Of a DNA stretch of 64,000 nucleotides, positions 4,416 through 42,426 are shown in pieces. The stretch covers positions 27,516-91,515 of the forward strand of contig JAJDCD010000005.1 of NCBI GenBank assembly GCA_029261035.1. Reading direction: 5' to 3'. Numbering within the stretch: position 1 is the stretch's first letter; every line of letters begins with the position of its first letter. The notes under the pieces are model-generated. The model ran no database searches. It was not told the DNA's origin and saw nothing but the letters and a program-made list of their open reading frames with translations. This DNA comes from Candidatus Omnitrophota bacterium (GTDB lineage Bacteria; Omnitrophota; Omnitrophia; Omnitrophales; JACROU01). The position numbers and the translations under genes were made by a program.

Positions 4416-7400
4416 ATGAGATATGAAAAATACCATTCAACTCAAAAGCTCTTTTCAGTTCACTCTTTAGGTGAAAAAGTTGGAAGTAGTTTTTTAATTA
4501 TTTTCTTCTTGCTGAGCACTCTTTTTGTTTCTCCTGAATCTCTTTTAGCAGAAACAGTTACCCATCAAAAACCTTCAGTATATTCTATTTCTCAAGTAAA
4601 TCAAATTCATATTCCAAAAGAGTTTGGTATCGTTGAAGAAGTTTATCATTCATCTTCTCCAGCTAAAAACAATCCTATGATTGTTTATTTACAAGATGCT
4701 CACTGTATCTATGAGGCCCAATCAAATATTCGAAAAATAATAGACACTCTTCAAAAGAAAAATGGATTACGGCTTATTGCTTTGGAAGGCGGTGAGGGAG
4801 GATTGGACACAGACCTTTTTCGATCTTTTCCTGTTCAAGCAGTAAAAGAGAAAGTGATCGATGATTATGTTCGGAGGGGGGAATTGTCAGGAGCGGAGTA
4901 TGCAGCAATTGTAAATGAAAAGTCTTCGGATTATTGGGGCATTGAGGACATGGTTGTTTATTACGAAAATAAAAATGCTTTTCTAGAATCAATTGACGAT
5001 AAAAAACGAATCGATCTAAAATTAGATGATTTAGATCGTTGGTTAAAAAAGAAAAAAGATGAAATCTATAGTAATCCCCTTAAAGATAATTTTAAAGAGT
5101 ATGAAGCATACGAGAAAGAATATATTACATTACTCGATTACTTAAACTATTTAAAAGAGCAATGGATACAAGCGGGTAAATCGCTGACGGAATTTGCAAG
5201 TATCCAGACGTTGTTGGAAGCGATTAATCGAGAGAAGCAAATGGACTTCACTCAAGTTCAAAGTGAGGCGGTTAGGCTAGAAAAAGTTTTAGAACGACGC
5301 TATAAAAGTGAAATACGTTCTGGTTCAACGACGTCTAAAGTAAGCTTTCAAGATTTAGAAGCTCGAAGGTCCCTGTTTGGAGAAGGTAAGTCTCAAAAAG
5401 ATCAATTTTACCCTTGGATTTGGGCGCGTGTTATAGAAGAGGATTTAGTTGCAGAAGATAGCTCTAATGATAGTTACCCCCATTTTCTTTCCTATATTAA
5501 ACACTTACAGGAACTGGAAAATATAAAAGGCGAAAGTCTCTTTAATGAATTAGAGAAAATGAACCAAGGAATAAAAGATTCTTTATTTCAAAATGAAGAA
5601 CAAAGAACCTTGGATCAGCTTTTTTATAACTTAAAGATACTCCGTAATCTTTCTAAGTTAGAACTCACTCGAGAAGAGCTGGAGTATTATCATAAGAATC
5701 GTGAGAGTTTGTCAGAGAAGAGTTTTTGGGATTTTATGGGAAGAGAATTGGGTCGGTTAGAATTGGATGATTTGTTCAAATCTCATGAACGTTTTTATGA
5801 AGCGGCAATCAAAAGAGATCGTATTTTGTATCAAAACCTTATGGATTTGTTGAAAGAAAAGAAACAAGATTTTGCGATGGTGGTTACGGGAGGGTTTCAT
5901 ACGGATGGTATTAAGGAACGCCTTAAAGCCAAAGGTTTTTCTTATATGGTTGTAACACCGCGCATCACCCAATTTGACGAAGAAACTCCGTATTGGGATG
6001 TGATGCAAGGAAATGTTTCTTATGCGAAGTATAAAAAGACATTTACTTTAGCGCCAGAGTTAGCATTGCAGGTTTATAACGAAGCTATTGAAGCCGCGAT
6101 TGTGGATTCCTTTGTTAGCGCAATAGAAGCAGATTTGCCTGAAGTTTTAAATTCATGGAGAGATAATGTCTTAACACAAGATTTAGATAGAGAAGTTGCA
6201 GCACAATACACAACAACGATTGATCGTTTGATTGACAGGCTTGTTTTAGGGTTAGAACAAACTCAAATTAACCCAGAGCTTATTCAAGGTGTGTCGGAAA
6301 CTCTCCGGCTTTATTTGCAAGGTGAACGAGATGCCGTTGTCCAAAAAGTGGATCAGCTTCAAGCAAGAATTTTACAGCTCCAAACTCAAAAAGTGGTTTC
6401 AAAAGCAGCGGTCAGTGCTGAGCTGGGTTCTTCATTTCCCGAATTTGCGTTACAAGAAGGAGTTTTTCAAGCTAGTTCTTTGGGAGCAATCGTTACAATT
6501 TCTGAAGCAAATCTATCTTCTTTTAATCGACTCCTAGACTTCGTTGATGCAGAAAGCATTAGGGATTTTTTAATTAATACAATTAGTTCTGTTGATGTAG
6601 AGTCTCAATTAGAGATGCTTGAACGGCTGTTGACACGTAATTCGGGTGAAAATGTCAAAATCGGTATTCCGATGACTCTCGCTGTAGAGCAGATGGTGGC
6701 TGTATATCAATTAAAAATAGGGGATGACTTAGGGGGTAAACGAAATCGGGATTTGGTTAAAATATCAAAATTGGAAATGGCAAAGAATTTATTGAAACAA
6801 ATTAAACAAACAAAAGATAGTGGAAAACCTCTTTCTGCAGAGGGTCTTGAGTTAATGACAGGACTCTTTAATATGCTTCAACCGATGTTCGATCGAACCG
6901 GGGCAAATTTAGAGTCAATGACCAATGTTTTGATTCGTAGAGATGATAGCGGAGTAGCTCCATTTCTGTCAGATAATGAGGCTGTGTTCATTATTGATCA
7001 TATTTATCCAATCAGTTTTATCAATAAAAAGGACCCAACATATTTACTTGGGGATGCTTTAATTGCAGCGCAAAAAGCTGCGTTGATAGGACTTAAAAAC
7101 CGGTATCAGTATGAAGTGGATGTCTCTTCGAAGCGAGGTGTTGTTTTTGGGATTCAGCAAGCACTTCTAGAACAATTTCATACAGACTACTTGGCTTTAG
7201 TTCAAGAAAACTTGAACAAAACAGCAGAAACTAATTCGAAATTAAAGGTGATATTAGATCAAAACCCTTCTCTCCTTAGTGATAGAGAGCTTTTTGGAGA
7301 GGGGAAAATTCGTGCAAAATACGCTTATAAAACGGGAGCTCAGATTAATGAATTGATTCCTACGTTAGGTCTTGGAATTCAATCTCTTCAGGAGCTGGGC

Positions 7401-10400
7401 AACGATAAAGCGTCAGAAAATATAGCAAATAAAATATCTAAATTGATTGTTCCTGAGTTGGAAGATATCGTTGAAGAAGTGAAATTGAGTCAATTGAAAA
7501 GCTTAAATATCTTGAATCAGAATTTTTATAATTTGGGTCGTATTCCATCCGATGTGCGATTTAATGCTTATAATCGTCGTGGTCCCCCTCGAGTGAATGA
7601 TTTTAGTGGTTTGTGGAGTAACGCAAATCTTCCAGGTATTGATATCGTAGTAGGTGAGCTATTAGAACAGCTTAAGAAAGATAAAGTTGATGACAAAATA
7701 GAGCCACTCCTTCCAGAGATTACAGATTACCTAATTCGATTATTGGAAGAAGCACTTGCTTTTACAGAACGGAACCCCCGACATCACCTCTTATTTAATG
7801 AATTATTTTTTACATCTCAAGTTCGAGAATTGCTTCAAAGAGAATTTAATCCTAATGCGCTAGAAGAAATGCAGGTGGCATTAGGGGGTAATCGATTACC
7901 TGAAAGGTTAAATCATAAAACGTTTACGAAGGGAGATGAGCACTTTACTCTTTTTAGAGATCAATCTGGAAAAGTGAACTATTTGTTTGTGGACTTTGAT
8001 AATTTTCAAGTGCTTGATTTATTACAACGTCAGCTAAATGTGCTTCCTAATGATGATGGTACTTTTTTTGATTTGCACGCACAAGTTGATTTGGCCTTGG
8101 AAGCGTTGATCGCGAGTAAAGAAGAGATCACCTCTCAGGATTTACAAGAAATGTTAGATCGAATTTTAGATCAAGTTGAAGTGGTTCTAGATTTATCCGA
8201 CGAAGAAACTCAAAAATATCTAGAACGCCATAATATGGACCCAGAGACTTTTGAAAAGTATGGAGAAATTTATAACGACAAAGAAGGTGTTTTTGTGAGT
8301 GTACCGGTTAGAAGAGTGAGTGTGGATACTAAAACAAAATATGAGGACAAACGTCGCCTCACAGGTAAGATCGGAAATATTGGGTTTAGTTCTTCTTTAA
8401 CTTCTGAATTAAATTTATCTAGAGAAGATTCCTTAGAAACGCTTTACAATAAACTGGAATCCATCTTAGGTTCTGGAGGTGTTGCTGTCGATATGCTCAA
8501 AGGGTTGAATAGAAGAGGGGAGAATGTGGAGCTTAACTCCACAGAGTATGGGCAAATATGGGGGGATTTCTTTAAAAAAGAAGCTTTGGAGAAAGTGAAT
8601 AAAAAAAACATATTGAGAGAATTAAATTCCACAGAGTTGCAAAATATGGATGAAGAGGGAAAGGGGATTGCTGTACAGCTCATATTAAACTTAAAAGAAG
8701 AGGTTCATGAAAATCGAGTGTATGTGATTGGTGAATTGGCTGATTTAGCGCTTCAATATGGGATAGAGTTTGCAGTGGTAGAAGGTTTTGTGAAGATGAT
8801 GGATGGTTTAGAGTTAGAACAACCGGATATTATTTCAGCTCAATCGTTAGGAAATGCTCAAATTTCAGAATTATTGATTCAAGACCTGGTTCAAGGGAAT
8901 TCTCCAGAAGAAATTAGAGATTACTTAAAAACGGAAGATGTCGAAGAGCAAATTCGGGGTATTGGAAGTTTGCTTGCAGGAGCTAATATCCGATCCTTTC
9001 AACGAGAGCAGCCAGGACAGTTTCAAGAACTTTTTACGGAGCTCGATGTGGAGTCGAGGCAAAGGGTTATTAATGCAGCTGTTAAAATAGCTACGGTTAA
9101 GAAAAAGCTAGCTAATTTTCTTCAGATTCAAAATCCAAACAACTTAAATTCATTGATTCAACGTTTTAGAAATTTAAAAGTTGATGAAGATCCAGGTGTC
9201 ATTATGTTGCGTTTCTTATCCGAAGAAGGGCGTAGAGAAGAATTTAAATCTAGAATGACTCAATTGCAGTTTAGAAATGATCTGAGGGATTATGTTCGAG
9301 AAGTAGTTGCAGAATTACCCGCCAAAGTTATTCCTATTAATCGAACTCAAGCAAAGCCTCATGTGGAAAATCAGATTCCTTTTGATTTAAGAAGAGAAGA
9401 TGCTCTCCTTTTTAAGGATATGGCAGAACTGCTACGGAATCAAAATCAGACAGATACAGCGCCTATTCTCCGATTGAGAGGAAAAGTTCGTTATGCGGGA
9501 AGAAATCTTGTTGGAGCGGGAACAACGCCTACTGAAAGAGGTATTCGTGCATTGACAGAACAGTATGGGCTAGAGGCTCCTACGAGTGACATTCAAACAA
9601 CGACCGAAGAATTATTAAGAAAGATGAAGCAGCGTTATGTTCATTTACTTGGAGCTCAAGTTGCTTTGGGAATCCAAAATTCTGATGAACTTACTCAATT
9701 TTTAGAGCGTATATCTCAGCAGGAAATCCCTATACTGACAGGAATAGAAGGGTTTGATTTATTAGAGGAGTTGATTGATGATCAGAAACTTAAAGAAATT
9801 GCTCCTGGTGTCAGTCATTCCTTTTTGGTTAATCAAAGAGGAAAAAGAAGTCTGGCTGTCCTTCGTCCTAATGAAATTATGTTTTTTAAACAATTTACAT
9901 CGGTAAAGGAAAGGGTAGAAGCGCAGTTAATGGGTAAACGATTAGAGCGAGAGATTTCTCTTTCAAAACTATACCCACAAAGTGGTGTTACTGAGCGTAT
10001 TTTGGATTTAGCGCAAAAGAATAGAGAGGGAGAACGTATTTTAGGTCTGGTTAAGCATTTTAAGAGACGTTACCCATCTCAAAATGAAAGAGATCGTTGG
10101 CTCACTGCTGCTTCTGAATTAGGTGTGAACCGAGTCTATAAGCGAGAGGTTTCAAAGCGAAGTCGAGATGTGGAGCAAGCACGAAAAAGGCTCAATGAAA
10201 TAAGTTCTAAAATAGCACGAAGAAAGAATTCAATTTTTTCTCGTTTTTTTAATATTGAAGCCTTAGAAAGCCAAAGAGAGCAATTAAGAAGAACATATCA
10301 AGCAGCTTTAGAAGAAAAGTCTTCATTTAAAGAAAAGTGGAGTTTGAATCCAGAAACAGGTAAATATCAATTAGCTCCTTCATCCAATATCTCTTTTTCC

Positions 10401-12032
10401 TATGAAGAAATTTACAAACAAGGTAAAGCACCTCTTTTGAAAGAGCTCATCGATTTACTTGCTTCTCAGGGTTATCCCTTTGGCGTTCTTGAAGGTCAAG
10501 AAGGGAGTATTACTTCTGTCTTAGAGCAGTTTGAGAAATTTTCAGCGCCTCTTCGTTTTTCAATGGCTCAAGGACGAGAAGAAATGATAGCGGGATTAGA
10601 TAGAAGTCAGCAGCAAGAGTTGGATCGTCTTATTGGAGAAATTAGATCGACAGATGTGGTATTAGATCGTTTAGACGCATTGTCTCCAAATGAATTTCCT
10701 ATTAAAACATTTTCTGATCTCAATAATTTTCAAGTTGCTCAAAGAATAGAAGAGTCCGTTTATTCAGATGTATTAAGTCAGGCGGATTTTCAGTTTAATT
10801 TTAACTCTAGACGAGTAGAAGGATTTTTGGAAGGAATTGTTCCGGAGGAAATTATTTTTGATTACTATAATCCAGTTGAGGCAAATGCACTTGGAGAACA
10901 AGTGGATGTGGAGTTAATGCAAAACCAGATTGCTATTGCAACGGATATTGCCTTTATTGTTGCTGGATTATCTCCGCCTAGTGGAAGAGATAAAACAGAC
11001 TATGAGCAGTCTGATTTTTCAGACTTCACTTTGTTTTTAGCAAATCTTAATGATGAAGATAGAGAAAATTTCCTTGTTAATTTAAGAGAAGGCGTGGCGA
11101 CGGCATTTAGTACTCAATTGGATTTGAATAATATAACTCAAATAGCAGAGCAGCTGACATCGGCCTCAGGGCAACGCTCAAACGAAGAGTTGTTAACTCA
11201 ATTGCGTTTGGCTACAGGTTTAGAATTATTAGATCTTTCTGATGTTGCTTTAGAGACGTTGCGTGAAACTTTGATTGCCCCTGTACAAGTACAAGTGGCC
11301 CAATCGCAGTTGGTAAATCAGTTTGATGCTCAATATGTCGATATGACGCGGCGAATAGACTCTCCTCAAGAGTTGGATTTAATTGTAAAGGGCTTAGCAG
11401 ATTATTATAATCAAGTTCTTGAAGGTATTATTTCGAGTAGTCCAAGTATTAAGGAGTCTTTGATTGTTCAGTATGATGGGAAGTCCTTTTTGGCGACTGC
11501 TAAAAATTTAAATAATTTAATTGAGACTCTTGAGTCTGTAGGAGCTAGAGGTAAAGTAATTGTCCATCATGATCCGAATCTGACTCAAGCGATTAATGAT
11601 ATTTTTTCTCAGCTGAGAGAGGCGGGGTATGGAAATTTGCTTTCTAAAATTCAAAAATCACGTTACCCTCTCAACTTAAGAGGATCAGATGTGAATCGAC
11701 ATAGTCGTTTGGCCACACGTTCTGGATTTGGGTCTGTTGCTTATTTTGGCATTGAAAATGGAAGTGTTTTACAAGAGTCTAAAGAAGAGAATAAATTGCA
11801 AGGGGATGTTGAAAAGCTAGATCGTTTTCAACCCTTTGTTTCTCTTTTAAATCGATTTGCTGTGACTTTGGCTCAGGTTCCAAAAGAAAAGCAAGCTGAG
11901 CTTGTTTCGGAGTTTTCTAGTTTGGGAATTGAGATGACTCCTGAAGGTGTTCTTACCATTAATCTTCAATCTCTTATTAATCGTATTACTTCTGAGTATC
12001 AATCTAGGGCTAAGGTTAAGGTTGCTGCGTAA
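4416..12032 (+). CDS. Giant secreted protein (2538 aa), a member of a paralogous family with a conserved N-terminal His-motif domain (~nt 4580-6040), a shared C-terminal module, and an -AA end.
   Basis: The ORF is uninterrupted and an SD GGAG lies 7 nt upstream. The N-terminus has a hydrophobic signal or anchor segment. It is ~60-70% identical to the 3765-aa ORF over the first ~560 aa and the last ~150 aa. Motifs are YLQDAHC, ALEGG, FYEAAIKRDRIL, VVTGGFHTDGI and TPRIT. The SxxSLG motif occurs 3-4 times. The protein ends ...VKVAA. Confidence 0.85.
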   Translation: MRYEKYHSTQKLFSVHSLGEKVGSSFLIIFFLLSTLFVSPESLLAETVTHQKPSVYSISQVNQIHIPKEFGIVEEVYHSSSPAKNNPMIVYLQDAHCIYEAQSNIRKIIDTLQKKNGLRLIALEGGEGGLDTDLFRSFPVQAVKEKVIDDYVRRGELSGAEYAAIVNEKSSDYWGIEDMVVYYENKNAFLESIDDKKRIDLKLDDLDRWLKKKKDEIYSNPLKDNFKEYEAYEKEYITLLDYLNYLKEQWIQAGKSLTEFASIQTLLEAINREKQMDFTQVQSEAVRLEKVLERRYKSEIRSGSTTSKVSFQDLEARRSLFGEGKSQKDQFYPWIWARVIEEDLVAEDSSNDSYPHFLSYIKHLQELENIKGESLFNELEKMNQGIKDSLFQNEEQRTLDQLFYNLKILRNLSKLELTREELEYYHKNRESLSEKSFWDFMGRELGRLELDDLFKSHERFYEAAIKRDRILYQNLMDLLKEKKQDFAMVVTGGFHTDGIKERLKAKGFSYMVVTPRITQFDEETPYWDVMQGNVSYAKYKKTFTLAPELALQVYNEAIEAAIVDSFVSAIEADLPEVLNSWRDNVLTQDLDREVAAQYTTTIDRLIDRLVLGLEQTQINPELIQGVSETLRLYLQGERDAVVQKVDQLQARILQLQTQKVVSKAAVSAELGSSFPEFALQEGVFQASSLGAIVTISEANLSSFNRLLDFVDAESIRDFLINTISSVDVESQLEMLERLLTRNSGENVKIGIPMTLAVEQMVAVYQLKIGDDLGGKRNRDLVKISKLEMAKNLLKQIKQTKDSGKPLSAEGLELMTGLFNMLQPMFDRTGANLESMTNVLIRRDDSGVAPFLSDNEAVFIIDHIYPISFINKKDPTYLLGDALIAAQKAALIGLKNRYQYEVDVSSKRGVVFGIQQALLEQFHTDYLALVQENLNKTAETNSKLKVILDQNPSLLSDRELFGEGKIRAKYAYKTGAQINELIPTLGLGIQSLQELGNDKASENIANKISKLIVPELEDIVEEVKLSQLKSLNILNQNFYNLGRIPSDVRFNAYNRRGPPRVNDFSGLWSNANLPGIDIVVGELLEQLKKDKVDDKIEPLLPEITDYLIRLLEEALAFTERNPRHHLLFNELFFTSQVRELLQREFNPNALEEMQVALGGNRLPERLNHKTFTKGDEHFTLFRDQSGKVNYLFVDFDNFQVLDLLQRQLNVLPNDDGTFFDLHAQVDLALEALIASKEEITSQDLQEMLDRILDQVEVVLDLSDEETQKYLERHNMDPETFEKYGEIYNDKEGVFVSVPVRRVSVDTKTKYEDKRRLTGKIGNIGFSSSLTSELNLSREDSLETLYNKLESILGSGGVAVDMLKGLNRRGENVELNSTEYGQIWGDFFKKEALEKVNKKNILRELNSTELQNMDEEGKGIAVQLILNLKEEVHENRVYVIGELADLALQYGIEFAVVEGFVKMMDGLELEQPDIISAQSLGNAQISELLIQDLVQGNSPEEIRDYLKTEDVEEQIRGIGSLLAGANIRSFQREQPGQFQELFTELDVESRQRVINAAVKIATVKKKLANFLQIQNPNNLNSLIQRFRNLKVDEDPGVIMLRFLSEEGRREEFKSRMTQLQFRNDLRDYVREVVAELPAKVIPINRTQAKPHVENQIPFDLRREDALLFKDMAELLRNQNQTDTAPILRLRGKVRYAGRNLVGAGTTPTERGIRALTEQYGLEAPTSDIQTTTEELLRKMKQRYVHLLGAQVALGIQNSDELTQFLERISQQEIPILTGIEGFDLLEELIDDQKLKEIAPGVSHSFLVNQRGKRSLAVLRPNEIMFFKQFTSVKERVEAQLMGKRLEREISLSKLYPQSGVTERILDLAQKNREGERILGLVKHFKRRYPSQNERDRWLTAASELGVNRVYKREVSKRSRDVEQARKRLNEISSKIARRKNSIFSRFFNIEALESQREQLRRTYQAALEEKSSFKEKWSLNPETGKYQLAPSSNISFSYEEIYKQGKAPLLKELIDLLASQGYPFGVLEGQEGSITSVLEQFEKFSAPLRFSMAQGREEMIAGLDRSQQQELDRLIGEIRSTDVVLDRLDALSPNEFPIKTFSDLNNFQVAQRIEESVYSDVLSQADFQFNFNSRRVEGFLEGIVPEEIIFDYYNPVEANALGEQVDVELMQNQIAIATDIAFIVAGLSPPSGRDKTDYEQSDFSDFTLFLANLNDEDRENFLVNLREGVATAFSTQLDLNNITQIAEQLTSASGQRSNEELLTQLRLATGLELLDLSDVALETLRETLIAPVQVQVAQSQLVNQFDAQYVDMTRRIDSPQELDLIVKGLADYYNQVLEGIISSSPSIKESLIVQYDGKSFLATAKNLNNLIETLESVGARGKVIVHHDPNLTQAINDIFSQLREAGYGNLLSKIQKSRYPLNLRGSDVNRHSRLATRSGFGSVAYFGIENGSVLQESKEENKLQGDVEKLDRFQPFVSLLNRFAVTLAQVPKEKQAELVSEFSSLGIEMTPEGVLTINLQSLINRITSEYQSRAKVKVAA

Positions 12033-12099: not shown

Positions 12100-12245
12100 T
12101 GGGGGTGAAACAAGATCGGTATCGAGCCTATCTTGTTTCTTGGGTTTATTGTGTTTCGTTATTGTGTAAATAACGAAACGCTTATTTGTTATTGGATATA
12201 TATAGATGCAGGGATAAAGGCTTTGTATGGGGGTGAAATTTGGGG
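12100..12245 (+). repeat. ~130-nt two-hairpin intergenic element, copy A. Hairpin 1 is 12107-12139 and hairpin 2 is 12153-12179, followed by a GGGATAAAGGC block.
   Basis: It is conserved with copy B at 60375-60515. Hairpin 1 shows compensatory changes between copies (gat/atc versus ata/tat). Hairpin 2 is gtttcgttat-tgtgtaa-ataacgaaac. Confidence 0.7.
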
Positions 12246-12430
12246 AGAGGATTTATTTTTTTTGCTTTAGAATAGCGTAACCCTTTTATTTTAAATAAGG
12301 TATGAGTTTTTAGAGGGGTGTTTTTATGGGGGATTGTATGGTGGAAACATTTGCTTTTTGGGGGGTTATAGGTTAACTTTGTACCTCGTGTTTAAAGGAC
12401 CCAAATCCATAAGAACGAGGTAATTTTTTA

Positions 12431-15400
12431 TTGAAAATCAATATCTTCCAAAAACTCATCCTTAGTAGTCTGGTGCTTCAGCTTGTGTTGAGTCCTTCAC
12501 TCTCATTTTCCCAAAATAGTGTTGAGGTGAGTTCTTTCGTAGATCAGCAAACACAAACAATTCAAAAATATTCTAAAGATCAAGTTCGTCAAAAAACCGT
12601 TATGAACTTATCCTCTGAAGATGCTAAAAATGAAATTACTCAAGAAGCGGCACGGTTATTAAACCAAAAAAGAGTCCCTTTATCTCGAATAACAACCTTA
12701 CTATCAAGAGCTCGTCCAATGAGTGCAGCAAGCTTAGGTGAAAAGGTCCCTCAATATCTTACACGCAGTTTTTTAGTTTCTCCTTCTAAAGAAGCTCTAG
12801 AGAACTCTTCTTATAAAGATCAATTGGTAGTGCGCCTTGGAGATGACGATAAAATTAGTTTTGGAGATAACCTTCCAACGGATATCACAGATCAACGTCG
12901 AAAATTAATGGTAGATGTTAGAAGTATAAAAAATAAACTAGTAACGTATTTTCCTCAACTTAAAGATATTGCTTGGGAGTTCGTATTCTATCCAGATGAG
13001 CCTGTAGTTTTGGTCGAGGGTGATAGTGAGACTACTCTTCGCATCGATTTTGAATTATTGAACTATATTAATTTGTTGGTTGTTGCAATAACGGATTTGA
13101 CTCTGAGTTATGAATTAAGAGGGTACGACAATTCTGCTTTAGTAAAAATATTTAGTGTGTCTCGAGCTGTGAATATATTGATGAATATAGATAAGAAAGA
13201 AATTGATTGGTTGGTTGCGCGAGTTGATGGCAGTCGTAAAAGTGTGTATGGGGAGATTTTGAAGAGTTTCGCGGGTAAAGGAACGAATAGTTGGGTTAAA
13301 GATAATAGCCAGAAGTCGGAACTAATAAGGCGGTTAGTTGAGTTAATCCCTGTTAATAAAGAAGAGTTAAGGGAAGTGCTAACTCAATTAAGGAATGACC
13401 AGTTAGTTGCTATGGCAAAAATGGTATTTACCTTATCTATCGTATTCGAGTCTTGGTCTGAAGAGAGAGATTTGAATTTAACCCGGTTGTTAAAAATAAA
13501 ACCTGTAGGATTGTATAACAAAATTGAGCAAGTGAATGATTATCATGCGGCTTTGAAAATGATAGAACAGTTTGAATCAAAAGTAGAAAATGGGACTTTG
13601 ATGTATGAGGATTTAAAATCTTCGAGTGAAGAGCGTAAAACATTGATGGAAACCGTTTTTATTTTAATGGTGCGAGAACGTAAATTTGATTTATTGATAG
13701 CTGTATTTAATGTATATGTGAATTCAAACATGAACCCCAACTTGCTGTTAACACCCTTATTTAATACTTTGTATGCTTCGCAACGCCACTACGGTGCATG
13801 GATTTCGTCGCGTCAGTTAGCCGAGGCTTTGGCATATGTCGTCCAAAATACGGAGAATGATATTGTAAGTGAATCGATTAAAAAATTTCCTAGTGTTCCT
13901 TGGTTGAAAATGTCAAAAGAAAATAGAATAAGTGTTGGCAAGTGGCTTGAGCACTATTTGAATGGAAGTGAAGACAAGGGTGGCGAGATTTTTCTGAGTA
14001 AGTTTATGCCAGCAGTTTCCCAGGTGGAATTTGATGATGATTTGGTTTTTGCATCGAATCGAGGTGCTTCAGATAAATATGGGAGATTAAGTCTTGAAGA
14101 ATATAGCATGTTGTCAGATTCTGTTCAAAGAAAGAAAAAGTATGTGGCTTTAGCAGAAGTAGAAAAAGAGATCGGTGGAAATCGTGAAAAAATTTTTAAC
14201 CGTACGGGAAAGACTTTTTTAAGGAACCCACCGTTTCCAATTCAATTAGTTGATGATGGTCATCTTAGAACGTTAAAAATTGATTTTGAAATTTTTAATA
14301 ATAGAACAGCTGTTTATAAAGCGAGTTTGGGTGAAATTAGAGATGAGTTTTATTTGCAGAATGCCCCTCAAAGTTTTGCGCTTAAAAAACTTTTTGCTCT
14401 CGTTAATTTTCTTGATGTTTTGGTTGGTGCTTCTGTCGAAGAAAAGAAATTTGTGACACAAAGAGCGATTCAGTCTCAGAGGTACTCGTTAGCGGCTTTT
14501 CTCAGTCATTTTGAGCAAGAAGGGTATGAAAGAGAACCGTGGGGTAATAAAAAGTGGAGAAAGAACATTTTTGAGATTTTAAAAGAGTCATTTCCTGAAT
14601 TGAACGAAAGTATTGAGAGTTTGGAATTGTTGGATTCAGATGTCTTGAGACAACAACTATCTGATCTCGAGAATGAAAGAAAAACGGAGAAGTTGTGGGA
14701 ACATTTAGCAGAGTTACTTTTTGAGGATATATTGCATTCGGGACAGTTTTTTAGGGTGTTTGATGAGATTGTGAGTGGATTGGTTTATTTGAAACAAAGC
14801 AGTCAATCAGATCGTTTGGAGCAGTTTTTGACTTTGCTTTTGCAGACTCATAATGGGAGAGATAAACTCTTTGAAGCAGTGCATAAGACTTTAAAAGAGG
14901 ATGAAAGTCGACCGTCATTAGATGAAAAAGATGTTGCGGAGATCCTTTTAGTTTTAGAGAAGTTACTTAAGAGCAGTTTGGAGAGAGGGGTGAGGTTTAG
15001 AGCTCATCCAGAAACGAAAGTTAAATATGGTCTTACAAAAGAGATCTTCCAAAAAATAAAAAGACATTATGAAGAGGGAAGAACGGTTGTGGAAGCCAGT
15101 AGTTTAGGGAAATCCTATTTTGATCCAGCGACACTGAATGATCGTCATCAAATGTTGGTGATTGATTTAAACTCCTTTTCTCTTACTCCTTATTTTTCGA
15201 AACAATTGATTCGATTTTTAGAAGAGTCTAAAAATAAGCAGATACAATTATTAGTTTCTCGTTTTCCACAAATTGCAGAATTGAAAAAAGAGTTTAAAGC
15301 GCTAGGTATTCAAGATAGAGAGCTAAAGCAAATACAGTTTATTGTTAATCCATTAATTTCTTCAGGGCATATGAGCGAACTGTCTGAATCCCTTGAAAAA

Positions 15401-15775
15401 TGGAAAATGAATTTGAGTTCTGCAAATTCTGGATCAGCTACGGATATTGCTTTTGTTTCAGATTTTGATTTATTAGAGCGTTTACAAGAAAATAGGATTC
15501 ATTCTGTAGCTCTGGACCGTGTTTTTCAGGAACAAAGAAAAGAACTGTTAGATATTTCAAATATTCATGGGGCAGAGAGGCATGCTGCGATAGGGACCTT
15601 ATTTAACCTTTCTTGGCAGCTGTTGAGCCAAGAAACCGTAGATGGCTTGTCTTATCGATTAGAGAGAGACGGAAACACGGGTATCTATGTAGCTCGACTT
15701 GAGTTTTTAAGGGAAGCTATTCAAGATTGGCTTTCTGATTTTCAATCAAAACAACTTATTGAACAAGCTGCGTAG
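12431..15775 (+). CDS. Large secreted protein (1114 aa), related to the giant family only through SxxSLG motifs and the -AA terminus. It lacks the N-terminal family domain.
   Basis: It has a TTG start (in the ORF track) and a signal-peptide-like N-terminus (LILSSLVLQLVLSPSLSFSQ). There is an internal duplication (TTLRIDFELLNY ~13030 versus RTLKIDFEIFNN ~14265). Motifs are SAASLG, YKASLG and EASSLG. It ends ...IEQAA. Confidence 0.75.
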   Translation: MKINIFQKLILSSLVLQLVLSPSLSFSQNSVEVSSFVDQQTQTIQKYSKDQVRQKTVMNLSSEDAKNEITQEAARLLNQKRVPLSRITTLLSRARPMSAASLGEKVPQYLTRSFLVSPSKEALENSSYKDQLVVRLGDDDKISFGDNLPTDITDQRRKLMVDVRSIKNKLVTYFPQLKDIAWEFVFYPDEPVVLVEGDSETTLRIDFELLNYINLLVVAITDLTLSYELRGYDNSALVKIFSVSRAVNILMNIDKKEIDWLVARVDGSRKSVYGEILKSFAGKGTNSWVKDNSQKSELIRRLVELIPVNKEELREVLTQLRNDQLVAMAKMVFTLSIVFESWSEERDLNLTRLLKIKPVGLYNKIEQVNDYHAALKMIEQFESKVENGTLMYEDLKSSSEERKTLMETVFILMVRERKFDLLIAVFNVYVNSNMNPNLLLTPLFNTLYASQRHYGAWISSRQLAEALAYVVQNTENDIVSESIKKFPSVPWLKMSKENRISVGKWLEHYLNGSEDKGGEIFLSKFMPAVSQVEFDDDLVFASNRGASDKYGRLSLEEYSMLSDSVQRKKKYVALAEVEKEIGGNREKIFNRTGKTFLRNPPFPIQLVDDGHLRTLKIDFEIFNNRTAVYKASLGEIRDEFYLQNAPQSFALKKLFALVNFLDVLVGASVEEKKFVTQRAIQSQRYSLAAFLSHFEQEGYEREPWGNKKWRKNIFEILKESFPELNESIESLELLDSDVLRQQLSDLENERKTEKLWEHLAELLFEDILHSGQFFRVFDEIVSGLVYLKQSSQSDRLEQFLTLLLQTHNGRDKLFEAVHKTLKEDESRPSLDEKDVAEILLVLEKLLKSSLERGVRFRAHPETKVKYGLTKEIFQKIKRHYEEGRTVVEASSLGKSYFDPATLNDRHQMLVIDLNSFSLTPYFSKQLIRFLEESKNKQIQLLVSRFPQIAELKKEFKALGIQDRELKQIQFIVNPLISSGHMSELSESLEKWKMNLSSANSGSATDIAFVSDFDLLERLQENRIHSVALDRVFQEQRKELLDISNIHGAERHAAIGTLFNLSWQLLSQETVDGLSYRLERDGNTGIYVARLEFLREAIQDWLSDFQSKQLIEQAA

Positions 15776-16007
15776 TCGACTTTTTCGATTGTGCGTTATG
15801 GTTGTATTTGTCATTGTGAGACTGGGGAAATTGGGTCGTGGCAATCTTAGGAAAATTGTTATTAAATGATTCCTTTGTCTGAGATGGCCTCGGCTATTCC
15901 GCTATAGCCTCTCAATGACGGGTCTTTTAGCTATGAGCTAATGGCTGACAGCTGTAATCTTTTATGTCATAATAAGTACCTAAACTTATATTTTTGGAGG
16001 ATCTATT

Positions 16008-18397: not shown

Positions 18398-18438
18398 AAA
18401 AAGGGACTGTCCCCAAAGGGGACTGTCCCTTTTTTTTA
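18398..18438 (+). terminator. Rho-independent terminator after xth.
   Basis: The hairpin is gggactgtcccc-aaa-ggggactgtccc, followed by T8. Confidence 0.8.
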
Positions 18439-18634: not shown

Positions 18635-21600
18635 ATGAATAGTTATTCTGGTCAACCTAATTCGTGTCAGGTTGAAAGGAATGTTTTGTTAAAAAAGGTT
18701 GGAAGCCTTTTGGTATTCTTTTTCTTCCTAATAAACTCTGTTTTTTATCCCATTTCAGAAGTTTGGTCTAATCCAACTTTTAATTCCATTGTGATCCCAT
18801 CTGTTAATAAAATAGAAATTCCAAAAGAGTTTGGAATTGTTGAAGAAGTTTACCAATCGCCTACAGCCACAGAAAATAATCCTCTTATTATTTATCTTCA
18901 AGATGCTCACTGTATTTATGAAGCACAATTCAATATTAAAAATTTAATTCAATCCTTTCAAGAAGAGCATAATCTTAATTTGGTGGCGCTGGAAGGGGGC
19001 TCAGGTGCTTTAGAGACAGATTTGTTTCGTTCTTTTCCAGTTCAGGAAATTAAAGAAAAAGTTATTGATGGTTTTGTCCGAAAGGGTGAGCTGTCAGGAG
19101 CAGAGTATGCGGCTATTGTTAACCCCAAAGAGTCTACTTATTGGGGCATCGAAGATATGGATATCTATTATGAAAATAAGGAAGCATTTTTAAAGTCTAT
19201 TGAAGTTAAGGAACGCGTTGATATGAAGTTGTTGGATATTCGTAGATGGCTCAAAAAGAAAAAAGATGAAATCTACTCAAAAAGATTAAAAGAAAATTTT
19301 GATAAATCAGAGGATTATGAGACGGAAAGAATTAATTTATTGGAATACATCAAGTATTTGATTGCTTCGGCAAAATCATTGAATTTGGATTTATCTTCTT
19401 ACGTTGCTATGGCTGAGTTGCTTCAAGGGATGGAAAGAGAAAAAACAATTGATTTCACTCAGGCTCAGAGCGACGCGTTCAATATGGAACGGGATGTGGA
19501 ACGTTTCTATAAGAACAGTTCCGGTGCTGAAGCTCAAGAGGCGCTTAAAGATTTTCAGTCTAAAATTACAGACTTTAAAGAAAGAAAAGTTGAAAAAGAT
19601 CAATTTTATCCTTGGTTGTGGTCTTACGCTAAGAGAATGGGTGTTGTTTCTGAAGGGGAGGGAAAAAGCCAATATCGAAATCTATCTCATTATATCAATC
19701 ATTTAAATCAATTAGAACAAATTCAGGGAGAGGAACTATTTAAAGAACTAGAGCAAATCGATCGAGAAATTAAAAGTCAGTTATTTGAAAATGAAGAGCA
19801 AAAAATACTAGATCAACACTTCTATCACTTAAAAATATTAGAAAATTTGTCAAAGCTTGAGTTGACGCGTGAAGAGCTTGCATATTATCAGTCGAATAAA
19901 GAGCTATTTGAAGAACAGCAATTTTGGGAGTTTATGGATCGTAATATGGGCCGTTTAGAATTGGATGACTTATTTCAACCTCATATGAAATTTTATGATG
20001 CGGCTCTCAAAAGAGATCAGGTGCTTTATGATAATTTAATGAGTCTTATGGATAAACAAAATAAAAAATTTGCTATGGTTGTTACAGGAGGGTTTCATAC
20101 CGGTGGAATTAAAGAAAAATTTAAAAAAGAAGGGTTTTCATACCTTGTTTTAACTCCTCGAATCACACACTTTGATGATGAGACACCTTATTGGGATGTG
20201 ATGAAAGGAAAGGTTTCTTATGCTAAGTACAAGCAGACGACAACTCTTTCCCCAGAGCTTGCGCTGAATGTTTATAAAGAAGCAGCAGCTCAAGAAATAT
20301 CAAATCAATTAGCTCAAGCGATTACTGATGACTTGCCTTCTGTTTTAAATCAATGGAAACAAAATATTTTGCAACGTCAAGCGCAAGGTGAAAATCAGGT
20401 GCAGATTGTGGATGGATTGATTAACCAGTTTGTTTTGGGGTTGAAAGAGGTTGGTTTAGAGGGAAGTGCTGCGGAACAACTTCAAAAGGCGCTTAATGCT
20501 TATTTTCAAGGACAATTGGAAGTGGCGGTGAAAAGCATTGAAGCTTTAGAGAACCTGTTGAGCAGCCCCGATATAGAAGGTGTTTCTCCTATAGATGTGC
20601 AGAATGTGCTCCAGCAAAATCAGCAAACCAGAGCGGAGGTGCAAAACCTAGAATCCGCAAATGCATTTTCATTAGGAGATGTTAAGGCAGCTTATACAGA
20701 AATCGAAACAGAAATGCAGCTTCTTGGTTTGGATTTTCAAGATTTCAATCTGTTTACGGCTCTTTTGCCACGGGGCGAAGGTACACGGGAAGAGTTTGCA
20801 ATCAAAGTAACTCGTTATTTAGAATCGGTTGAGAACCCTGAAGTTTCTCTAACAGAATCGGAAAGAAGCGAGAATTTAAAATTAGATAATTTTTTCAAGG
20901 GGTCATTTAAAAGGGGTATTTTTTCAGATGAAATTCCTGCATCGAAAATCAGTGCTGCTAGAGTTGTTTTGGACAAAATTAAAACATTGCTTCCTTCAGC
21001 GCAGGATGTTTTCGAAAAAGAAGAAGCAGAGTTTCAAGAGAAAAAAGGGCAAGTTTTAACATATTTGCAGTCTGTGAGGTATTCGCCTGGGATCGCTTTA
21101 GAGGAGCTGTTGAATTTCCGCTCAATTACCAATGAGACAGGCCAGCCTGTTTTTCCAGGTGGCCTGTGGGATTATGAAGACCTGGACCGAATGGACGAGG
21201 ATGCGGACGTCGTAGCAGCTATAGAAGCAGCCTCTAGTCTGTATAGGGAAGAAGAAGGGCGTGTCGCTTTAGAACAAGAACTTTTAGCTGAGCGAAAAAG
21301 GCAAGAGAAGGAAACAGCGATACGTAGTTTTTATGCAGATATTTTAAATGCAAATCAAAGTGACTTTGATGCTTTGATAACGGAATTACAAGGCAGTGAG
21401 AAAGCGCTTGAAAAGCGTTTAAGTCCTTTAGGAATTGCAGTGGCTATCACGTCCAGTACGGGAGAGACGGAATTTAAGGAGTTGAGTCTTTGGGATTTTG
21501 ATACTTTGGATATTTTGGAACGGCCGGACATACAAGCTCTTAAACTAAGTTCGGAACAGAAAATAAGAACGGAAATAGAGCGAAGGAAAAGAGTGGAGGA

Positions 21601-24600
21601 AGCAGCAAAAGATGCACAGAGAATCAATGACTTTAATCGACGTGCTGCTTTAGCAGCTGACTATTTCAAAAATTTAACATTGGATCCGCAAAAAGAACTG
21701 CAAGAAATTTTGGATGGAATTTATCAGCTTAAAGATAAAAATGGAGCGTCTGTTGTTAGTCTTTGGTCTCTAGACTCTGTCGAAGATCATTCCGATGTTC
21801 AATCGGCAAAAGCATCTGCGATTGACAGATTAACTCAAGCTAAACAAGAGTGGGATCGGATCAATCAGCAATATGCAGAAAGTAGCCAATTTGTAGATCG
21901 AGCAACGAAAGTAAGTCAGTTGACACAATATTATGATGGGTTATTAGGTCAGTATCAGCTGGGTATGGATATTGAACAAATGGCATCTCCCTTCCAAGCA
22001 ACCTACGTTACAGTCAATGAAGCTGGTGAGCAAGTTCAGAGCAGAGTTTTGAATGGGTGGACGGATTCGGATTGGAGTATTTCTGAGTTAGATGAAGTAA
22101 AGGCTTTGGCTGAAAAAGTAAAAGCACAGCTTGAAACTAGAAAAACAGAATTAGAAATTTTAAATCAGCAGTATGCTGAGAACCAGGAGTTTATATCCTA
22201 TGCCAACCGTATTCAAAAGCAGATTCGATTTTATAACAATTTAAGTTATGAACCCGGTATGGATGTATTTGAAGCTGCTGATATTTATCGTAACTCTGAA
22301 CTGAGACCACTTTTTAGTATTTGGGAAGATGACTCATCACAAAAAGACGTGCTTGTACTTAAAGCTAGAAATAATGCTTTAGATCGTTTGGCTAGGCAAG
22401 AAGCAGCATCTGAGGAATCGTTGCTTCCGCAAGGTTTTTATGCTGTGCATTCAGCCACAGCAGCGCAAAAAATAGCTTCTATTTTAGATGCAGCTGTATC
22501 GAACAATCCGAGGCTAGCCACGCGAATACAAATCAATAAAGATAATGGTGCGGTTAAGGATATTAAACTCGATAATTCCTTCTTAGATGTGGAACAAGAT
22601 GGAAACCCTCTCACCAGAATTTCTTCTTCGTTAGAGGATTGGTCCGGTATTACTCCTGGAGAAAATTTCAAAGGGTTAAGTTTGGACGACTCTAAAGTTC
22701 TGTTGGAGATAGATAATCTGTTATTTTCGATTGATGGCGAAGGAAATTATGAGGAAGTGAGCGCTCAATCATTGGGAGTGAGGGAGATTTATGAAGAGTT
22801 AGAGGAAGATTTGGAGCTTTTAAAAATAACACCGCGGCAATTTCAAAGCTTAGCTCACGATCTTAAAGCAGCATCCAAGAATAGGAGGAATTATATAGCG
22901 ACGGTACAAAAGGTTGTGGATACGCTCCTTTCTGGAAATGAGCATGTTTATTCTGCAGATGAACAGTCTGTCAAAGATGTGATTGATCGTTATTTTAGAG
23001 CAGGGCTTAAGAAAAAAGGAATTTTTTCTAGAGCTATTCCTTCACAAAATATTAAAGCGGCTGAAGATGTGTTGAGCCGTATAGCAAGCTTTGTTTCTAG
23101 AGGAAAGCGGCTTCAGACCTCTTTAGCTAAAAAAATCAGTGAAAAATATAATGTAGGGCAGGTAGATGCTGAACGTCGAGCCAGTGAATTGGTGAATACT
23201 CTTTTTGATCGAGGAGAAAGCGCTCAGGATCTGATGCAAGTCGCGAACGAATTAATAAAAAATATAAGAATTAATCAGCCAGGAGTAAAAAACAAGGGGC
23301 GTCTTGATTGGTTAGAGTTTTTTGAGTTGCTTGAGGTTTCTCCGGATATTACGGCCCAACAACTTTTGACGCTTATTCAAAATTTTGCCGAAAAGAACAT
23401 TCCAGCAGGCCCTTTTCTTGATTTTGCCCAGGCTTCTGAAAGTTCTAGTCAAGACTCAGAACGGTCCATAGTAGATCAAGATATAGGCCGAATCGTTGCT
23501 CCATTTAAGGACTATGGCATTAAAAATCTGCGTCATTTTGTTAATGCATTTAGTGTTGAGGGGGAAGAAGGAGCATCTTATTTTAGTTTATTTAGTAGAA
23601 ATAATGGTCCTCAAGAGCTGGACTTTATTAAACGTTTAGGAAGGATTTTTCCATCGGCCATTAACACTCAGGACGTAGTAGATCGCTTTACAGATGCAGG
23701 GTTAATTCAAGAAGATATCGGTGTGTATTTATCAGATGCTCTTGCGCAGGGAGAGCAGCTAGGTCGATTAACTCAGCTTAGCCGTATCCTTATCGAATTT
23801 AGCATTGACGAGGAGAATGAAGATGCCGTTAGAGCATTCCTTTTATCCATTCAGTCAAAATTACCTGATTCTTTTTCCGGTATCCGAGAGGTTGTGAATA
23901 AAATTGTTGTTCAAACGAGTATTAACCCGATTGAAGTGCAGCCCTTTTATGAATTTAATCAAGGAATTGCTTTCTCTGATGAGCACAAAAAACTAGTGCT
24001 GGCTTCCGTTTTATTACGTCAAGCTCAGGTTTCTGAAGCTGACGTGTTCAATTTACTCAATACAAACAAATCACTTTCTGAATTAGGCATTGAAGTGAGT
24101 AATCAGGTTGCTAAAGAGTTTTATGTTACAGCTTTTGATGATCGAGGTTTTTCACAGATTAGGAAGCGTTTAGGAGATCTTGTAAATAAAATTAATGCTT
24201 CAAACCCTCAAAAGCGTTTTGCGTACCGCCAATCTGGATCCGATTTGCTTAAGACACGAAAGGACCAACTTTTGATGGCTATTCGCCGAGCAAAAATTAA
24301 GGAAGAACAGCGTGTCGAGGCAGAAGAGAGGAGAAAGGTATTCGAAAGACAGGCAGCGGAACAACGGGTTCTCGAGTCACCGGTCCGTATTAAGCAATCT
24401 CTTATAAAGGGTGAGCCAATCATTATCGACTCGAATAATCCTATTACGTTTGAATTGGCAGGACAATCAGATTTTTCACTCTCGTTGTTGCCTTTATCGA
24501 CAGGGGAAATTGGAATTTATCTTGTAAATCAGGCCGGTCAGTCTTTTCCTTTAAATATAGGAACGAATAATGTGCTTAGAGAAGGAGAAGACATCTCTAT

Positions 24601-27600
24601 TGGAAGAAGCGAGTTAGAATCTTTTAATTTGCCAGGAATAGTGAGGGTTTCAGGGAGTCATCTGAAACTACGGGTGGATGCGAAAGCAGATGGGTCTGGG
24701 AAACACATTTCCATTACCGACACTTCCAAAAATGGGACAGTAATTCAAGTAGATGGAACTCTTGGGTCGTTGGGAGACAACTTGTCTTCGGCAATAGCAG
24801 ATCGTGTGAGAAAGGCAAATATAGATGCGGTAGTTTTGGACTTGATAGCCGATAAGCCGACAGGGTTCCCTGTGGGCGTGAATATGCAGGAGTATAGTCG
24901 TATAGAAGGCATTTTGTCTGAATTGGGAGGCAGTCAGCTGAGAAGAAATGAAGCCGCTTTAAAAAGGGTTCTGCGGGCTGCGGTTCAAAAGATGTCTTTA
25001 CCTACATTAGAAGAATCGCTGGAACAGGGAAGGAACCTTAGAGTTGATGGTCAGTTTGATCAGGCGATTGATTACTATTTAAATTTACCGGTACAGCAGC
25101 AACAAAATGTGAATGTACAGCTTGGATTATTTCATTCTTATTTGGGAGCGAAGCAGTTAGAAAATGCGGCCTCTGTTTTAGAGGATCTTAATATCAGCAG
25201 GACGTTAAGTGATTATGAAAAAGAAGCGCGCCGAGGACAATTAGAAAGATTTAATACAGAAGGTATTCCTTATATGCTTTTAGATGCCGCAATTGGAGCA
25301 GAATATGTGGATGTCAAAAAAGCCTATCGAAAGCTCATGATTAAATATCATCCGGATCGATACGGCAATGAATCTCAAGAAATTCAGGATGCGGTTAAAA
25401 ACATTTCTGCTGCATTAAACGGAGCGCATACCTCCATAGAAATAACAGCTAAATCTTTAGGGCAATTAGGAACATTAGATAAGATTCAGGTGAGAAGTGA
25501 TGAAAGTTTAAATACGTTGATCCCATTTATTCAAAGGACGCGAGATAACAGCTTAAAAAGAAGATTAGATTCAATTCTATCGAAACCTCCGAATCAAAGA
25601 GATGTTCGAGAAGTCAACCAGCTGATTCAGCAGATTGCTAGAGGTCTTAAAGTACATCCATCTCGACTGTTTAAGAGTCCGGTACAGCCACAGCGCTCGA
25701 GAGGGGCGGCTGTTTTGAGCCGTACCCGAAGAGCTCCTGAAAGAGCCCCTCGTTTGGTACCTAGTGGAAGAAGAGAACAGGTTCCTGTAAAGCGTCAACG
25801 AAGAAGACGAGTCGCGCCTCCTCAAACTCCACAAGTCAGAATTCAAGATAAGTCCCTTTATGATCAAGAAGCACAAGCAATTCAAAGAGCACTTCAAGAG
25901 GCAGAGAGACGGGCTGCATTCTCAAGAGAGCAGCAACGTGTGAGACGAGAAGCGCGGATTGCTGCAATTGAAGAACAACTTAAAAAGCCTTTGGTGGAAC
26001 GTTTGGAAACAGTTTCATTAGAGGAGGTCGAGTCTATTTTGCAAGGATCTATTGCATCTGGAATACAAGGGCGCCGTAATTATTTTAAGGATTCGGTTAC
26101 GGGAGATTATTACTTACTTAAAGAGATGACTTTTGCAACATTTGGAGATGTTCTTCATTCTGAGGTTTCTGATTTAGTTGGTTTTGATAGTGTGCGTGCA
26201 GAATATGTGGAGAATTTTAATGGCAAGACTGGTTTGCTAACAAAGATTGTTAGAGATTCTCAAACTTTGGGTGATTTTACGCGATTTTCTAATCATGGAA
26301 ATATAGACTCTAGAGGTGTTGTTCAAGATTTAAAAAAAGCAAGCGTTGTTGATTTACTTTTACTAGATGAGGATCGTTTTGCGAATAACTTCTTAGTGAC
26401 GGTGTCTGTTGATGGTAAGGCCCGACTTCATTCCATAGATCACCCTCCTTCTGAAATTGATTCTTACACAAAATATTTAGAGACGCTTGGACTAACAGAG
26501 CAAAATGTAGGTCGGGGTAGAAGTTTTGCTTCTGATCTTGAAGCTGTAGGTCGTTTAGTAGATCTTCAGAAGATCGTGGATGATATTACCAAACAGAGTC
26601 AGTTTGGTAATAATGCTAAAAAAGAAATAGCTCGAAGATTTCAAATTATTTCTCAGAATTTGTTTAATAGTGGAAACCCAGAAGATCAGAAAATGGCTTC
26701 GAAAATTGGAGGGAAGTTAAGAGATTATTTAATTCTCCAAGCATATGTGAAAAATCAGTTGAGTCAGGCAGTCCAAGTGAAAGGAGCTAATGGAGTGACC
26801 CTTCGAGGATCTCGATATTTTGGACTGAATGACCAAGACATTGATTTTAACAGAGATTTATTACCCGTCATTACAGAGTTAAAAGAAAAGTTAACGGATG
26901 AGAAAATAGACTCTATTTTAGAATCTGCTAATATTCCGCAAGAAAAGAGAAATGCAGTAAGAGAAACAATGCGTCTACGTCGAGATTTGATTGAAGAGGT
27001 TTTGAGAGAATATTATTCTCGTCCAAGAGAGATTGATGCCTCTATCGGTTATTTAACACCAGATGATGTTACGAATGAGCTGCTTATTACAGACCGTGTT
27101 TTTCAACGAGCAGTTGAAAAAGAGGTGTTGCCCGTATTAGAAGAGATCCGGGATACCGCTTTATCTGAAGGGAAGGTTGAAGTTTTAGTTGAAAGAGCAA
27201 AGTTAAGCAAGGCTTTAGTTCAAGTGGCTGTAAAGTTAAAACGTCTTACAGCAGATTTTACTACTCGGGTAGGAGAAACGCCTCGCCCCGATGAAAATGT
27301 AGTGAAGTCCAATCAAGGGAAAGATTTGATTGATTTAAGAATTTATCAGTTGCTCTTCTTTGTGGAGCAGTTCAACCAAATTGTGGATACTGCTGGAAAA
27401 ACGCCTATACAGAAGTTAATTCTTGGAAGGTCTACAGCAGAAATAGCTCCTTTGCTTCGTTTATCACCACAAAAAGGAGTTGTGAACAAAGACATCTATG
27501 CTGCAATTAAGTCCTTGTCTGTGTTAAGTCGTCCAGCTCCAACGAATCCCAATTTTAATAACTTAATGCAGAGACGAGAAAATAAATTAGAGTTAGATGC

Positions 27601-29932: not shown

Positions 29933-29977
29933 TATGTGTCCTCTTTTGGGGTAGAATGGATATGCTTAAAGATAGTT

Positions 29978-30010
29978 TGTCATCCCCGAATGTATGAGTC
30001 GGGGATCCAG
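29978..30010 (-). repeat. REP-like palindromic element, copy 2 (tgtcatccccga-atgtatgag-tcggggatccag), in inverted orientation.
   Basis: It is the same family as the 993-1020 copy. Confidence 0.7.
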
Positions 30011-30152
30011 ATTTGATAAAGGGATAGTAAGGAGACTCTAAGGTCTTATGGGTTTCCGACTAAAGATTTCGGGAACGACAATTATCTTTTTATTCTTTAA
30101 ATAAATTCGTGAATATGGGCATAGATGGTTTAATAAAAGGGGCGATAAAGCA

Positions 30153-42351: not shown

Positions 42352-42352
42352 T

Positions 42353-42381: not shown

Positions 42382-42426
42382 TGTCTTTGTGGTTTTTATT
42401 TTTAAAATGAACTCCTATGATTTTAC

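Follow-up and report, generated by a model that had tools for sequence, protein, structure and literature searches.

Genomic setting of the repeat

The Omnitrophota form a phylum of ultra-small, uncultured bacteria that possess giant genes. The window analysed here is a 64-kb stretch of DNA from one member of this phylum, with a G+C content of 35–40% and a GC skew of +0.15 to +0.27 throughout. All supported genes are located on the + strand, the sole exception being a PuuD-like gene at 1084–1707. Five + strand ORFs have a length of at least 1392 aa (1392–3765 aa; 4416–12032, 18635–29932, 30153–34331, 34528–42351 and 51202–58125). In a Pfam scan of two of these five, no domain was recognized in the 2538-aa ORF and one HATPase_c match in the 1392-aa ORF. 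Four of the five share short stretches of similarity near the N-terminus, most evidently the first and the second ORF (repeats D1, D2 and D4). No tRNA or tmRNA was found in the window by ARAGORN.

Within these 64 kb, a repeated intergenic element occurs in two clear copies and one probable further copy, which adjoin unrelated genes. Copy A is located between the 2538-aa ORF on its 5′ side and an 1114-aa ORFan (12431–15775) on its 3′ side, for which no homologue was found among 5.8 billion proteins. Copy B is flanked by a ClC channel gene on the 5′ side and by a DsbA-like/MauE gene pair on the 3′ side. The downstream neighbours of both clear copies encode exported or periplasmic proteins (a secreted protein of 1114 aa next to A, the DsbA-MauE operon next to B). 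The putative copy C resides in the intergenic region 3′ of the + strand gene at 21–686, with a convergent gene downstream. Copies A, B and C have the same orientation and lie 10–160 nt past the stop codon of a + strand gene.

Anatomy of copies A and B

Copies A and B have an ungapped core of 82 nt in common, with 90% identity (direct repeat D3). The order of the module is hairpin H1, an 11-nt linker (UUGGGUUUAWU), hairpin H2, a U-tract and, 25–30 nt beyond, a 15-nt box (TGCWGGGATAAAGGC). The individual parts are:

12104–12190, + strand: copy A core (H1, linker, H2, start of the U-tract); match to covariance model R1 with 112.2 bits, repeat D3
12107–12139, + strand: copy A H1 with one C/U mismatch and loop AUCGA; −14.4 kcal/mol, z −5.5, inverted repeat I2
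12140–12150, + strand: copy A linker TTGGGTTTATT; 10/11 identity to copy B
12151–12193, + strand: copy A H2 plus U-rich tract TTATTTGTTATT, intrinsic-terminator-like; scan match, −14.9 kcal/mol
12207–12221, + strand: copy A box TGCAGGGATAAAGGC; exact pattern with two occurrences in the window, 14/15 identity to copy B
60379–60465, + strand: copy B core (H1, linker, H2, U-tract); R1 match with 113.4 bits, repeat D3
60382–60414, + strand: copy B H1 with loop AUCGA; −16.4 kcal/mol, z −7.0
60426–60464, + strand: copy B H2 plus T8, intrinsic-terminator-like; terminator-like scan match
60486–60500, + strand: copy B box TGCTGGGATAAAGGC; pattern match

The original prediction, made from the sequence of the window, had described a structured element in these two intergenic regions. 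Both copies are present there (12104–12190 and 60379–60465), and each module pattern was found exactly twice in the window, compared to 0 occurrences expected from shuffles. The two-hairpin layout with a conserved H1 loop was reproduced by folding, with the loop identical at 5/5 positions. H1 consists of 14 stem positions and the loop AUCGA in both copies, its sequence being GAAACAAGATCGGTATCGAGCCTATCTTGTTTC in A and GAAACAATAGGGGCATCGAGCCCATATTGTTTC in B. H2 (GTGTTTCGTTATTGTGTAAATAACGAAACGC) is identical in A (12151–12181) and B (60426–60456), with a 13-bp A/U-rich stem, the loop GUGUA and a U-tract thereafter. As had been noted, this U-run is strong in B (T8) and weaker in A (TTATTTGTTATT). 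The fold energies were −14.4 (A) and −16.4 kcal/mol (B) for H1 and −14.9 kcal/mol for H2, corresponding to z-scores of −5.5 to −7.

H2 was recognized in both copies by a scan for terminator-like sites, which yielded no other such site in either intergenic region. It resembles intrinsic (Rho-independent) terminators in its 13-bp stem, 5-nt loop and directly following U-tract (T8 in B), in its location past a stop codon and in lying on the gene strand. It differs from them in being A/U-rich, with only 4 of 13 pairs being G-C, while other terminators of the window are G+C-rich (e.g. 18398–18435 and 48557–48605), and in forming part of a larger repeated unit that also comprises the conserved hairpin H1, the linker and the box further downstream. 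The original prediction had set the element apart from a plain shared terminator; for H2 we cannot follow this, as it is best read as exactly such a terminator.

The suggestion that the element is a leader module fared no better. In such a scenario, the module would act as a cis-regulatory leader or attenuator of the genes downstream (those for the 1114-aa protein and the DsbA-MauE operon), with H2 as the regulated hairpin and H1 as the factor-binding one. We consider this highly improbable, even though both clear copies precede genes for exported or periplasmic proteins and the box separates the terminator from the gene that follows. The two hairpins do not overlap, no antiterminator or other alternative to the terminator was found, and H2 was part of the minimum-energy fold even with the 3′ arm of H1 blocked; in the nascent transcript the 5′ arm of H2 stays essentially free. 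Moreover, a conserved upstream promoter was not found, the next start codon follows the U-tract at very unequal distances (~104 nt past its end in B, with the ATG at 60568, versus ~240 nt in A, with the start at 12431), and copy C has no downstream + strand gene but faces a convergent one, leaving nothing to regulate.

Several other assignments were considered and rejected. Conserved coding can be dismissed for the + strand small ORFs over copies A and B, which diverge in frame after indels, and for a 126-aa − strand ORF, which is present at B only. The box does not qualify as a promoter upon inspection, as its spacing to −35-like and −10-like hexamers varies between the copies and GATAAA is without a final T; inspection for long-range pairing between box and linker gave just 5 bp (UUUAU with AUAAA). 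The differences between A and B are not adenine-specific, contrary to a diversity-generating retroelement. A candidate for a further, degenerate unit at 12343–12432, in the same intergenic region as copy A, reached 8 bits only.

The intergenic region of copy A contains short direct repeats. An 11-nt exact repeat, TGGGGGTGAAA, at 12100–12110 and 12228–12238 flanks the module with a spacing of 128 nt, and a second one, TTGTATGGKGG..AAA, is located at 12223–12242 and 12334–12353. Repeats of this kind were not found around copies B or C.

Conservation is uneven along the module

The identity between copies A and B was very high in defined blocks, with 31/31 positions in H2, 10/11 in the linker, 5/5 in the H1 loop, 14/14 in the outer stem of H1 and 14/15 in the box. 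Outside these blocks it dropped to 51% over the 57 nt upstream, to 45% with indels between H2 and the box, and to 41–42% past the box. A flank identity of 41–51% would be about the presumed baseline for unrelated sequences of like composition. A 51-nt stretch with a single change adjoins stretches of ~45% identity with indels. Six of the eight differences within the core are confined to the inner stem of H1, which has 14 positions (p ~2e-4, for a partition picked after looking).

The H1 hairpin is kept despite these inner-stem changes. They comprise one fully compensatory change from G-C to U-A and one from U.G to C-G, and the mismatch is shifted by one position. The compensatory stem changes of the original prediction are real for G-C to U-A, which is, however, the sole fully compensatory pair between the two copies. 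Because there are only two sequences and one double change, covariation between A and B cannot be proved, and as an argument for an sRNA it is too slight. Covariation had been put forward for selection on an RNA structure rather than a mere shared terminator. The non-uniform conservation of the blocks and the location of six of the eight differences in the H1 inner stem argue for a constraint beyond that on a bare terminator; this additional constraint is seen at H1, at the linker and at the box. The complete identity of H2 including its stem exceeds what a terminator would need and could reflect a recent duplication.

This pattern also bears on the possibility that the module is a functionless relic, i.e. 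one short segment copied a single time, e.g. through repair or an illegitimate recombination event, and now in decay, with the uneven conservation due to chance or to the mutational bias of quasi-palindromes. That only two clear copies exist and that no homologue was found elsewhere in the databases searched would be in line with such an origin. Nevertheless, a 51-nt stretch with one change beside stretches of ~45% identity with indels, a box conserved at 14/15 positions 25–30 nt away and the clustering of 6/8 core differences in 14 positions are hard to reconcile with uniform decay, and we regard a relic as improbable.

A putative third copy and the upstream hairpin H0

A covariance model (R1) was built from copies A and B and run unfiltered over the window. 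Besides A and B it yielded one further match, at 809–874 (24.8 bits, E ~1e-3), here called copy C. The search for additional copies by covariance model, initially proposed for the whole genome, gave one probable third copy within the window and no third clear one. The features of copy C and the hairpins located upstream in B and C (H0) are:

811–845, + strand: H1-like hairpin of copy C with loop AUUGA on a stem of 15 bp free of mismatches; R1 match, fold −20.4 kcal/mol
60258–60347, + strand: copy B H0 with the inner motif GCTCAGACA...AACTCGC inside an outer stem of 17 bp; inverted repeat I1, fold, 9-mer
698–774, + strand: copy C H0, a different 17-bp outer stem with the same inner motif GCTCAGACA...AACTCGC; inverted repeat I2, fold, motif

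We regard copy C as a probable diverged family member. Among 437 ATYGA sites on both strands, long stems were found only at 826, 12121 and 60396 (18, 13 and 13 pairs, respectively; the next had 9), and no ATYGA loop on a long stem was found in the loci used for comparison, which amount to 30 kb (22 kb of the relative plus 8 kb of an unrelated genome). Furthermore, the 60 nt upstream of H1 are alike in register between A and C (p ~0.0025). Yet, copy C showed no significant similarity when the complete intergenic regions were aligned locally by sequence alone, and ordinary terminators in the relatives scored 21.9–22.4 bits with R1, near the 24.8 bits of copy C. In an H1 alignment including C, 7 of 14 pairs were changed on both sides and 95% of the cells were paired, which was reached by 2 of 500 shuffles; this three-copy covariation count is partly circular since copy C was chosen by structure, having been found via a structure-aware model.

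In B and C, H0 is located directly after the stop codon and 34–37 nt upstream of the H1-type hairpin. Its outer stems are unrelated between the two copies, whereas the inner bulge/internal-loop motif is the same and folds alike around a variable hairpin. The H0 9-mer has only two occurrences in the window, one in copy B H0 and one at 718. The words GCTCGGC and GCTCAGAC are permuted between B and C, for which reason the two hairpins were misaligned by MAFFT. The two H0 hairpins also have the word TGCTCGGC in common, again in permuted order. The module content appears to differ among the copies, with H1, H2 and box in A, H0, H1, H2 and box in B, and H0 and H1 without H2 or box in C, the homology of C being only partly supported.

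Strand assignment

The G.U wobbles in H1 of A, H1 of C and the second pair of H2 all occur on the + strand, an A/C mismatch on the − strand, and 3/4 of the hairpins are more stable as + strand RNA. Together, the + strand wobbles and the + strand U-tract favour an RNA element that has the same sense as the flanking genes. The G+T richness of the + strand alone could, however, bias the wobble pattern, and the shared orientation of the three copies is weak evidence, since nearly all genes are located on the + strand.

Relatives and database searches

The nearest relative available for comparison is a 2.17-Mb JGI metagenome contig, with the ClC and PuuD proteins 75% and 82% identical, respectively, and the gene order kept at the sites of copies B and C; in a second relative (L003), ClC is 77% identical. 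The comparison covers the B and C sites, while the A site is without an orthologue since its downstream gene is an ORFan. At the B site (ClC-DsbA) the element is absent from both relatives compared, the intergenic region measuring 82 nt in the nearest relative (locus L002) and 219 nt, unrelated in sequence, in L003, versus 337 nt here. Likewise, it is absent from the C site (CarboxypepD_reg-PuuD) of the nearest relative (locus L004), with 175 nt versus 397 nt here, and the C intergenic region cannot be aligned to the orthologous one except for the gene ends.

Longer intergenic regions than in L002 and L003 are seen here more generally. Relative to their syntenic block of HemDE, RF-1-domain, ClC, DsbA, MauE, EF-P and PEPCK genes, the window also contains two extra genes, one of 2307 aa (51202–58125) between the RF-1-domain gene and ClC, and one with a CarboxypepD_reg domain (61808–62524) between MauE and EF-P. 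The 649-aa ORF at 48658–50607 is a fusion of HemD (uroporphyrinogen-III synthase) and HemE (uroporphyrinogen decarboxylase), and the same fusion is present in relative L002.

The presence beside unrelated genes and the absence from orthologous sites in a relative would also be expected from an element acting at the level of DNA, e.g. a MITE, a hairpin-ended derivative of the IS200/IS605 type or a recombinase site, in which RNA structure and terminator are incidental. Another intergenic hairpin repeat family in the same genome and the 11-nt direct repeat TGGGGGTGAAA around copy A point in the same direction, and hairpin-templated mutation can yield seemingly compensatory changes without selection at the RNA level. 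However, terminal inverted repeats were not found, the inverted-repeat search showing internal hairpins only, and the flanking direct repeat is missing at B and C, different from the target-site duplications of MITEs. Moreover, the wobble pairs all favour a + strand RNA, U-tract and orientation fit transcription, and no transposase or recombinase was noticed among 22 ORFs of the window compared to Pfam, a set from which four other giant ORFs were left out. We therefore rate a DNA-level element as rather unlikely.

The database searches returned no homologue. No Rfam family reached its gathering score anywhere in the window. Permissive Rfam searches of the three intergenic regions gave sub-threshold matches only, the lowest E value (0.0095) being for MicX in a terminator region near C, at 22 bits versus a cut-off of 75 bits; over the element itself the best E value was 0.21. 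Among 596 Gb of genome contigs, the H2 pattern matched one chance palindrome only, in Aneurinibacillus. The linker-plus-H2 and H1 patterns had 0 matches in JGI metagenome contigs, as had the H1-linker pattern in viral contigs, and blastn gave no match to plasmids and one chance match of 38 nt to phages. In the literature searched, nothing was found on non-coding RNAs of Omnitrophota or on families of intergenic repeats in this phylum. As far as the compared data reach, the element appears to be specific to one lineage.

The original prediction had also proposed the module as a candidate sRNA. Regulatory RNAs derived from 3′ UTRs (CpxQ, SroC) and multicopy paralogous sRNAs (Qrr, PrrF) are well established. 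Accordingly, A and B could represent paralogous genes for trans-acting sRNAs of ~80 nt, derived from 3′ UTRs or transcribed from their own promoter. Such an sRNA would have H1 as 5′ hairpin, UUGGGUUUAWU as G/U-rich single-stranded seed and a terminator with a U-tail, while the H1 inner stem would be irrelevant or tune stability. The layout of a 5′ hairpin, an unpaired linker and a terminator with U-tail is canonical sRNA anatomy, conservation is highest in loop, linker and terminator, and two near-identical copies adjoin unrelated genes; in all this the module resembles the RNAs named above. It is unlike them in having a conserved box past the terminator, in lacking a conserved promoter or processing signal and in coming from a phylum for which no RNA chaperone context is known. 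No promoter-like site was found on the + strand upstream of H1 in A, and the sole one in B is located inside H1. With only 51% identity over the 57 nt upstream, no terminator directly after H1 in copy C and no match to an Rfam family, we consider the sRNA reading unlikely, yet worth keeping in view. What stands of that proposal is the sRNA-like layout; an independent sRNA gene finds no counterpart in a conserved promoter, but a 3′-UTR-derived version is possible.

Proposed role of the module

The feature is real, non-coding and without a match in the databases searched, and it is best filed with interspersed intergenic hairpin and terminator repeats. The repeat observed here, with its hairpins, terminator-like anatomy and mosaic conservation, absent from two sites in the relatives and from the databases searched, may well be a lineage-specific mosaic interspersed repeat that provides the + strand genes upstream of it with a 3′-UTR hairpin and an intrinsic terminator. 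This is the reading we prefer, tentatively and with a little less than even confidence. It would consist of the modules H0, G/U-rich spacer, H1, linker, H2 terminator hairpin and box, of which different copies carry different subsets. Transcription of the upstream + strand gene would extend into the repeat, with H2 and the U-tract acting as intrinsic terminator. H1, which is stable, has 14 bp and keeps the AUYGA loop, would then be placed in the 3′ UTR just before H2 and might serve as an exonuclease barrier or as a protein-recognition hairpin, setting the stability or processing of the mRNA 3′ end. We infer this termination and 3′-UTR role from the anatomy of the module. Its spread may have involved duplication, recombination or transposition. 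The box beyond the presumed terminator is unaccounted for by the 3′-UTR and terminator reading.

Mosaic repeats are known from intergenic regions of other bacteria, e.g. REP/BIME and ERIC in enterobacteria, BOX and RUP in Streptococcus pneumoniae and the Correia elements in Neisseria. They consist of short non-coding hairpin modules that are co-transcribed with their neighbours, are modular, are restricted to particular lineages and in many cases terminate transcription or stabilise mRNAs. The element described here resembles them as a set of short hairpin modules in intergenic regions beside unrelated genes, with copies that appear to differ in module content. It shares no sequence similarity with them and has 2–3 copies in the 64-kb window. 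Correia, RUP and ERIC elements possess terminal inverted repeats, in contrast to the module reported here.

In a wider version, H0, G/U-rich spacer, H1, linker and H2 would together constitute a multi-hairpin RNA family of ~200–250 nt confined to one Omnitrophota lineage. Its members could be mobile 3′-UTR elements with a dedicated protein or paralogous regulatory RNAs in which the H1 inner stem provides specificity. Behind this stand the H0 motif GCUCAGACA...AACUCGC, which occurs between fully different stems, and the conserved AUYGA loop of H1, whose stem varies in sequence but is paired in every copy. We consider such a family quite unlikely.

As a repeated terminator and 3′-UTR cassette, the element is a small addition that aids the annotation of transcript ends and shows intergenic expansion in this lineage, and with two clear copies it is a finding of local interest as it stands. 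If there were many copies genome-wide, they would provide a natural covariation data set and a handle on a protein recognising the AUYGA-loop hairpin.

Other repeats and features of the window

A separate family of REP-like hairpins, TGTCATCCCCGA..TCGGGGATCCAG, is located at ~1005–1035, 29975–30085, 42352–42455 and 43470–43575, mostly as intergenic inverted pairs ~90 nt apart. It is present in the relative as well (L004, 10835–10870) and is therefore older than the H1-H2 module.

Downstream of copy A, the segment 12308–12431 contains a Shine-Dalgarno-like GAGGGG followed by a 16-codon ORF (12326–12376, MGDCMVETFAFWGVIG). A hairpin at 12382–12422, followed by T6, is located immediately 5′ of the 1114-aa gene, and the GAGG in its 3′ arm is a possible RBS of that gene. 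The segment may constitute a leader peptide or attenuator of the 1114-aa gene; its fold was no better than those of shuffles.

Low-complexity pseudo-repeats such as CTATCCGCTCTACGCTCCGTGCTAC, GCTATTAGCTTTTGGCTCTTAGC and GCGAATTGCGACATGCGAATTGCGC occur at gene ends both here and in the relative:

~1045–1083, 42470–42515, 47690–47730 and 15930–15960: low-complexity pseudo-repeats in the window
12020–12050 of L002: low-complexity pseudo-repeat
10770–10800 and 10895–10930 of L004: low-complexity pseudo-repeats
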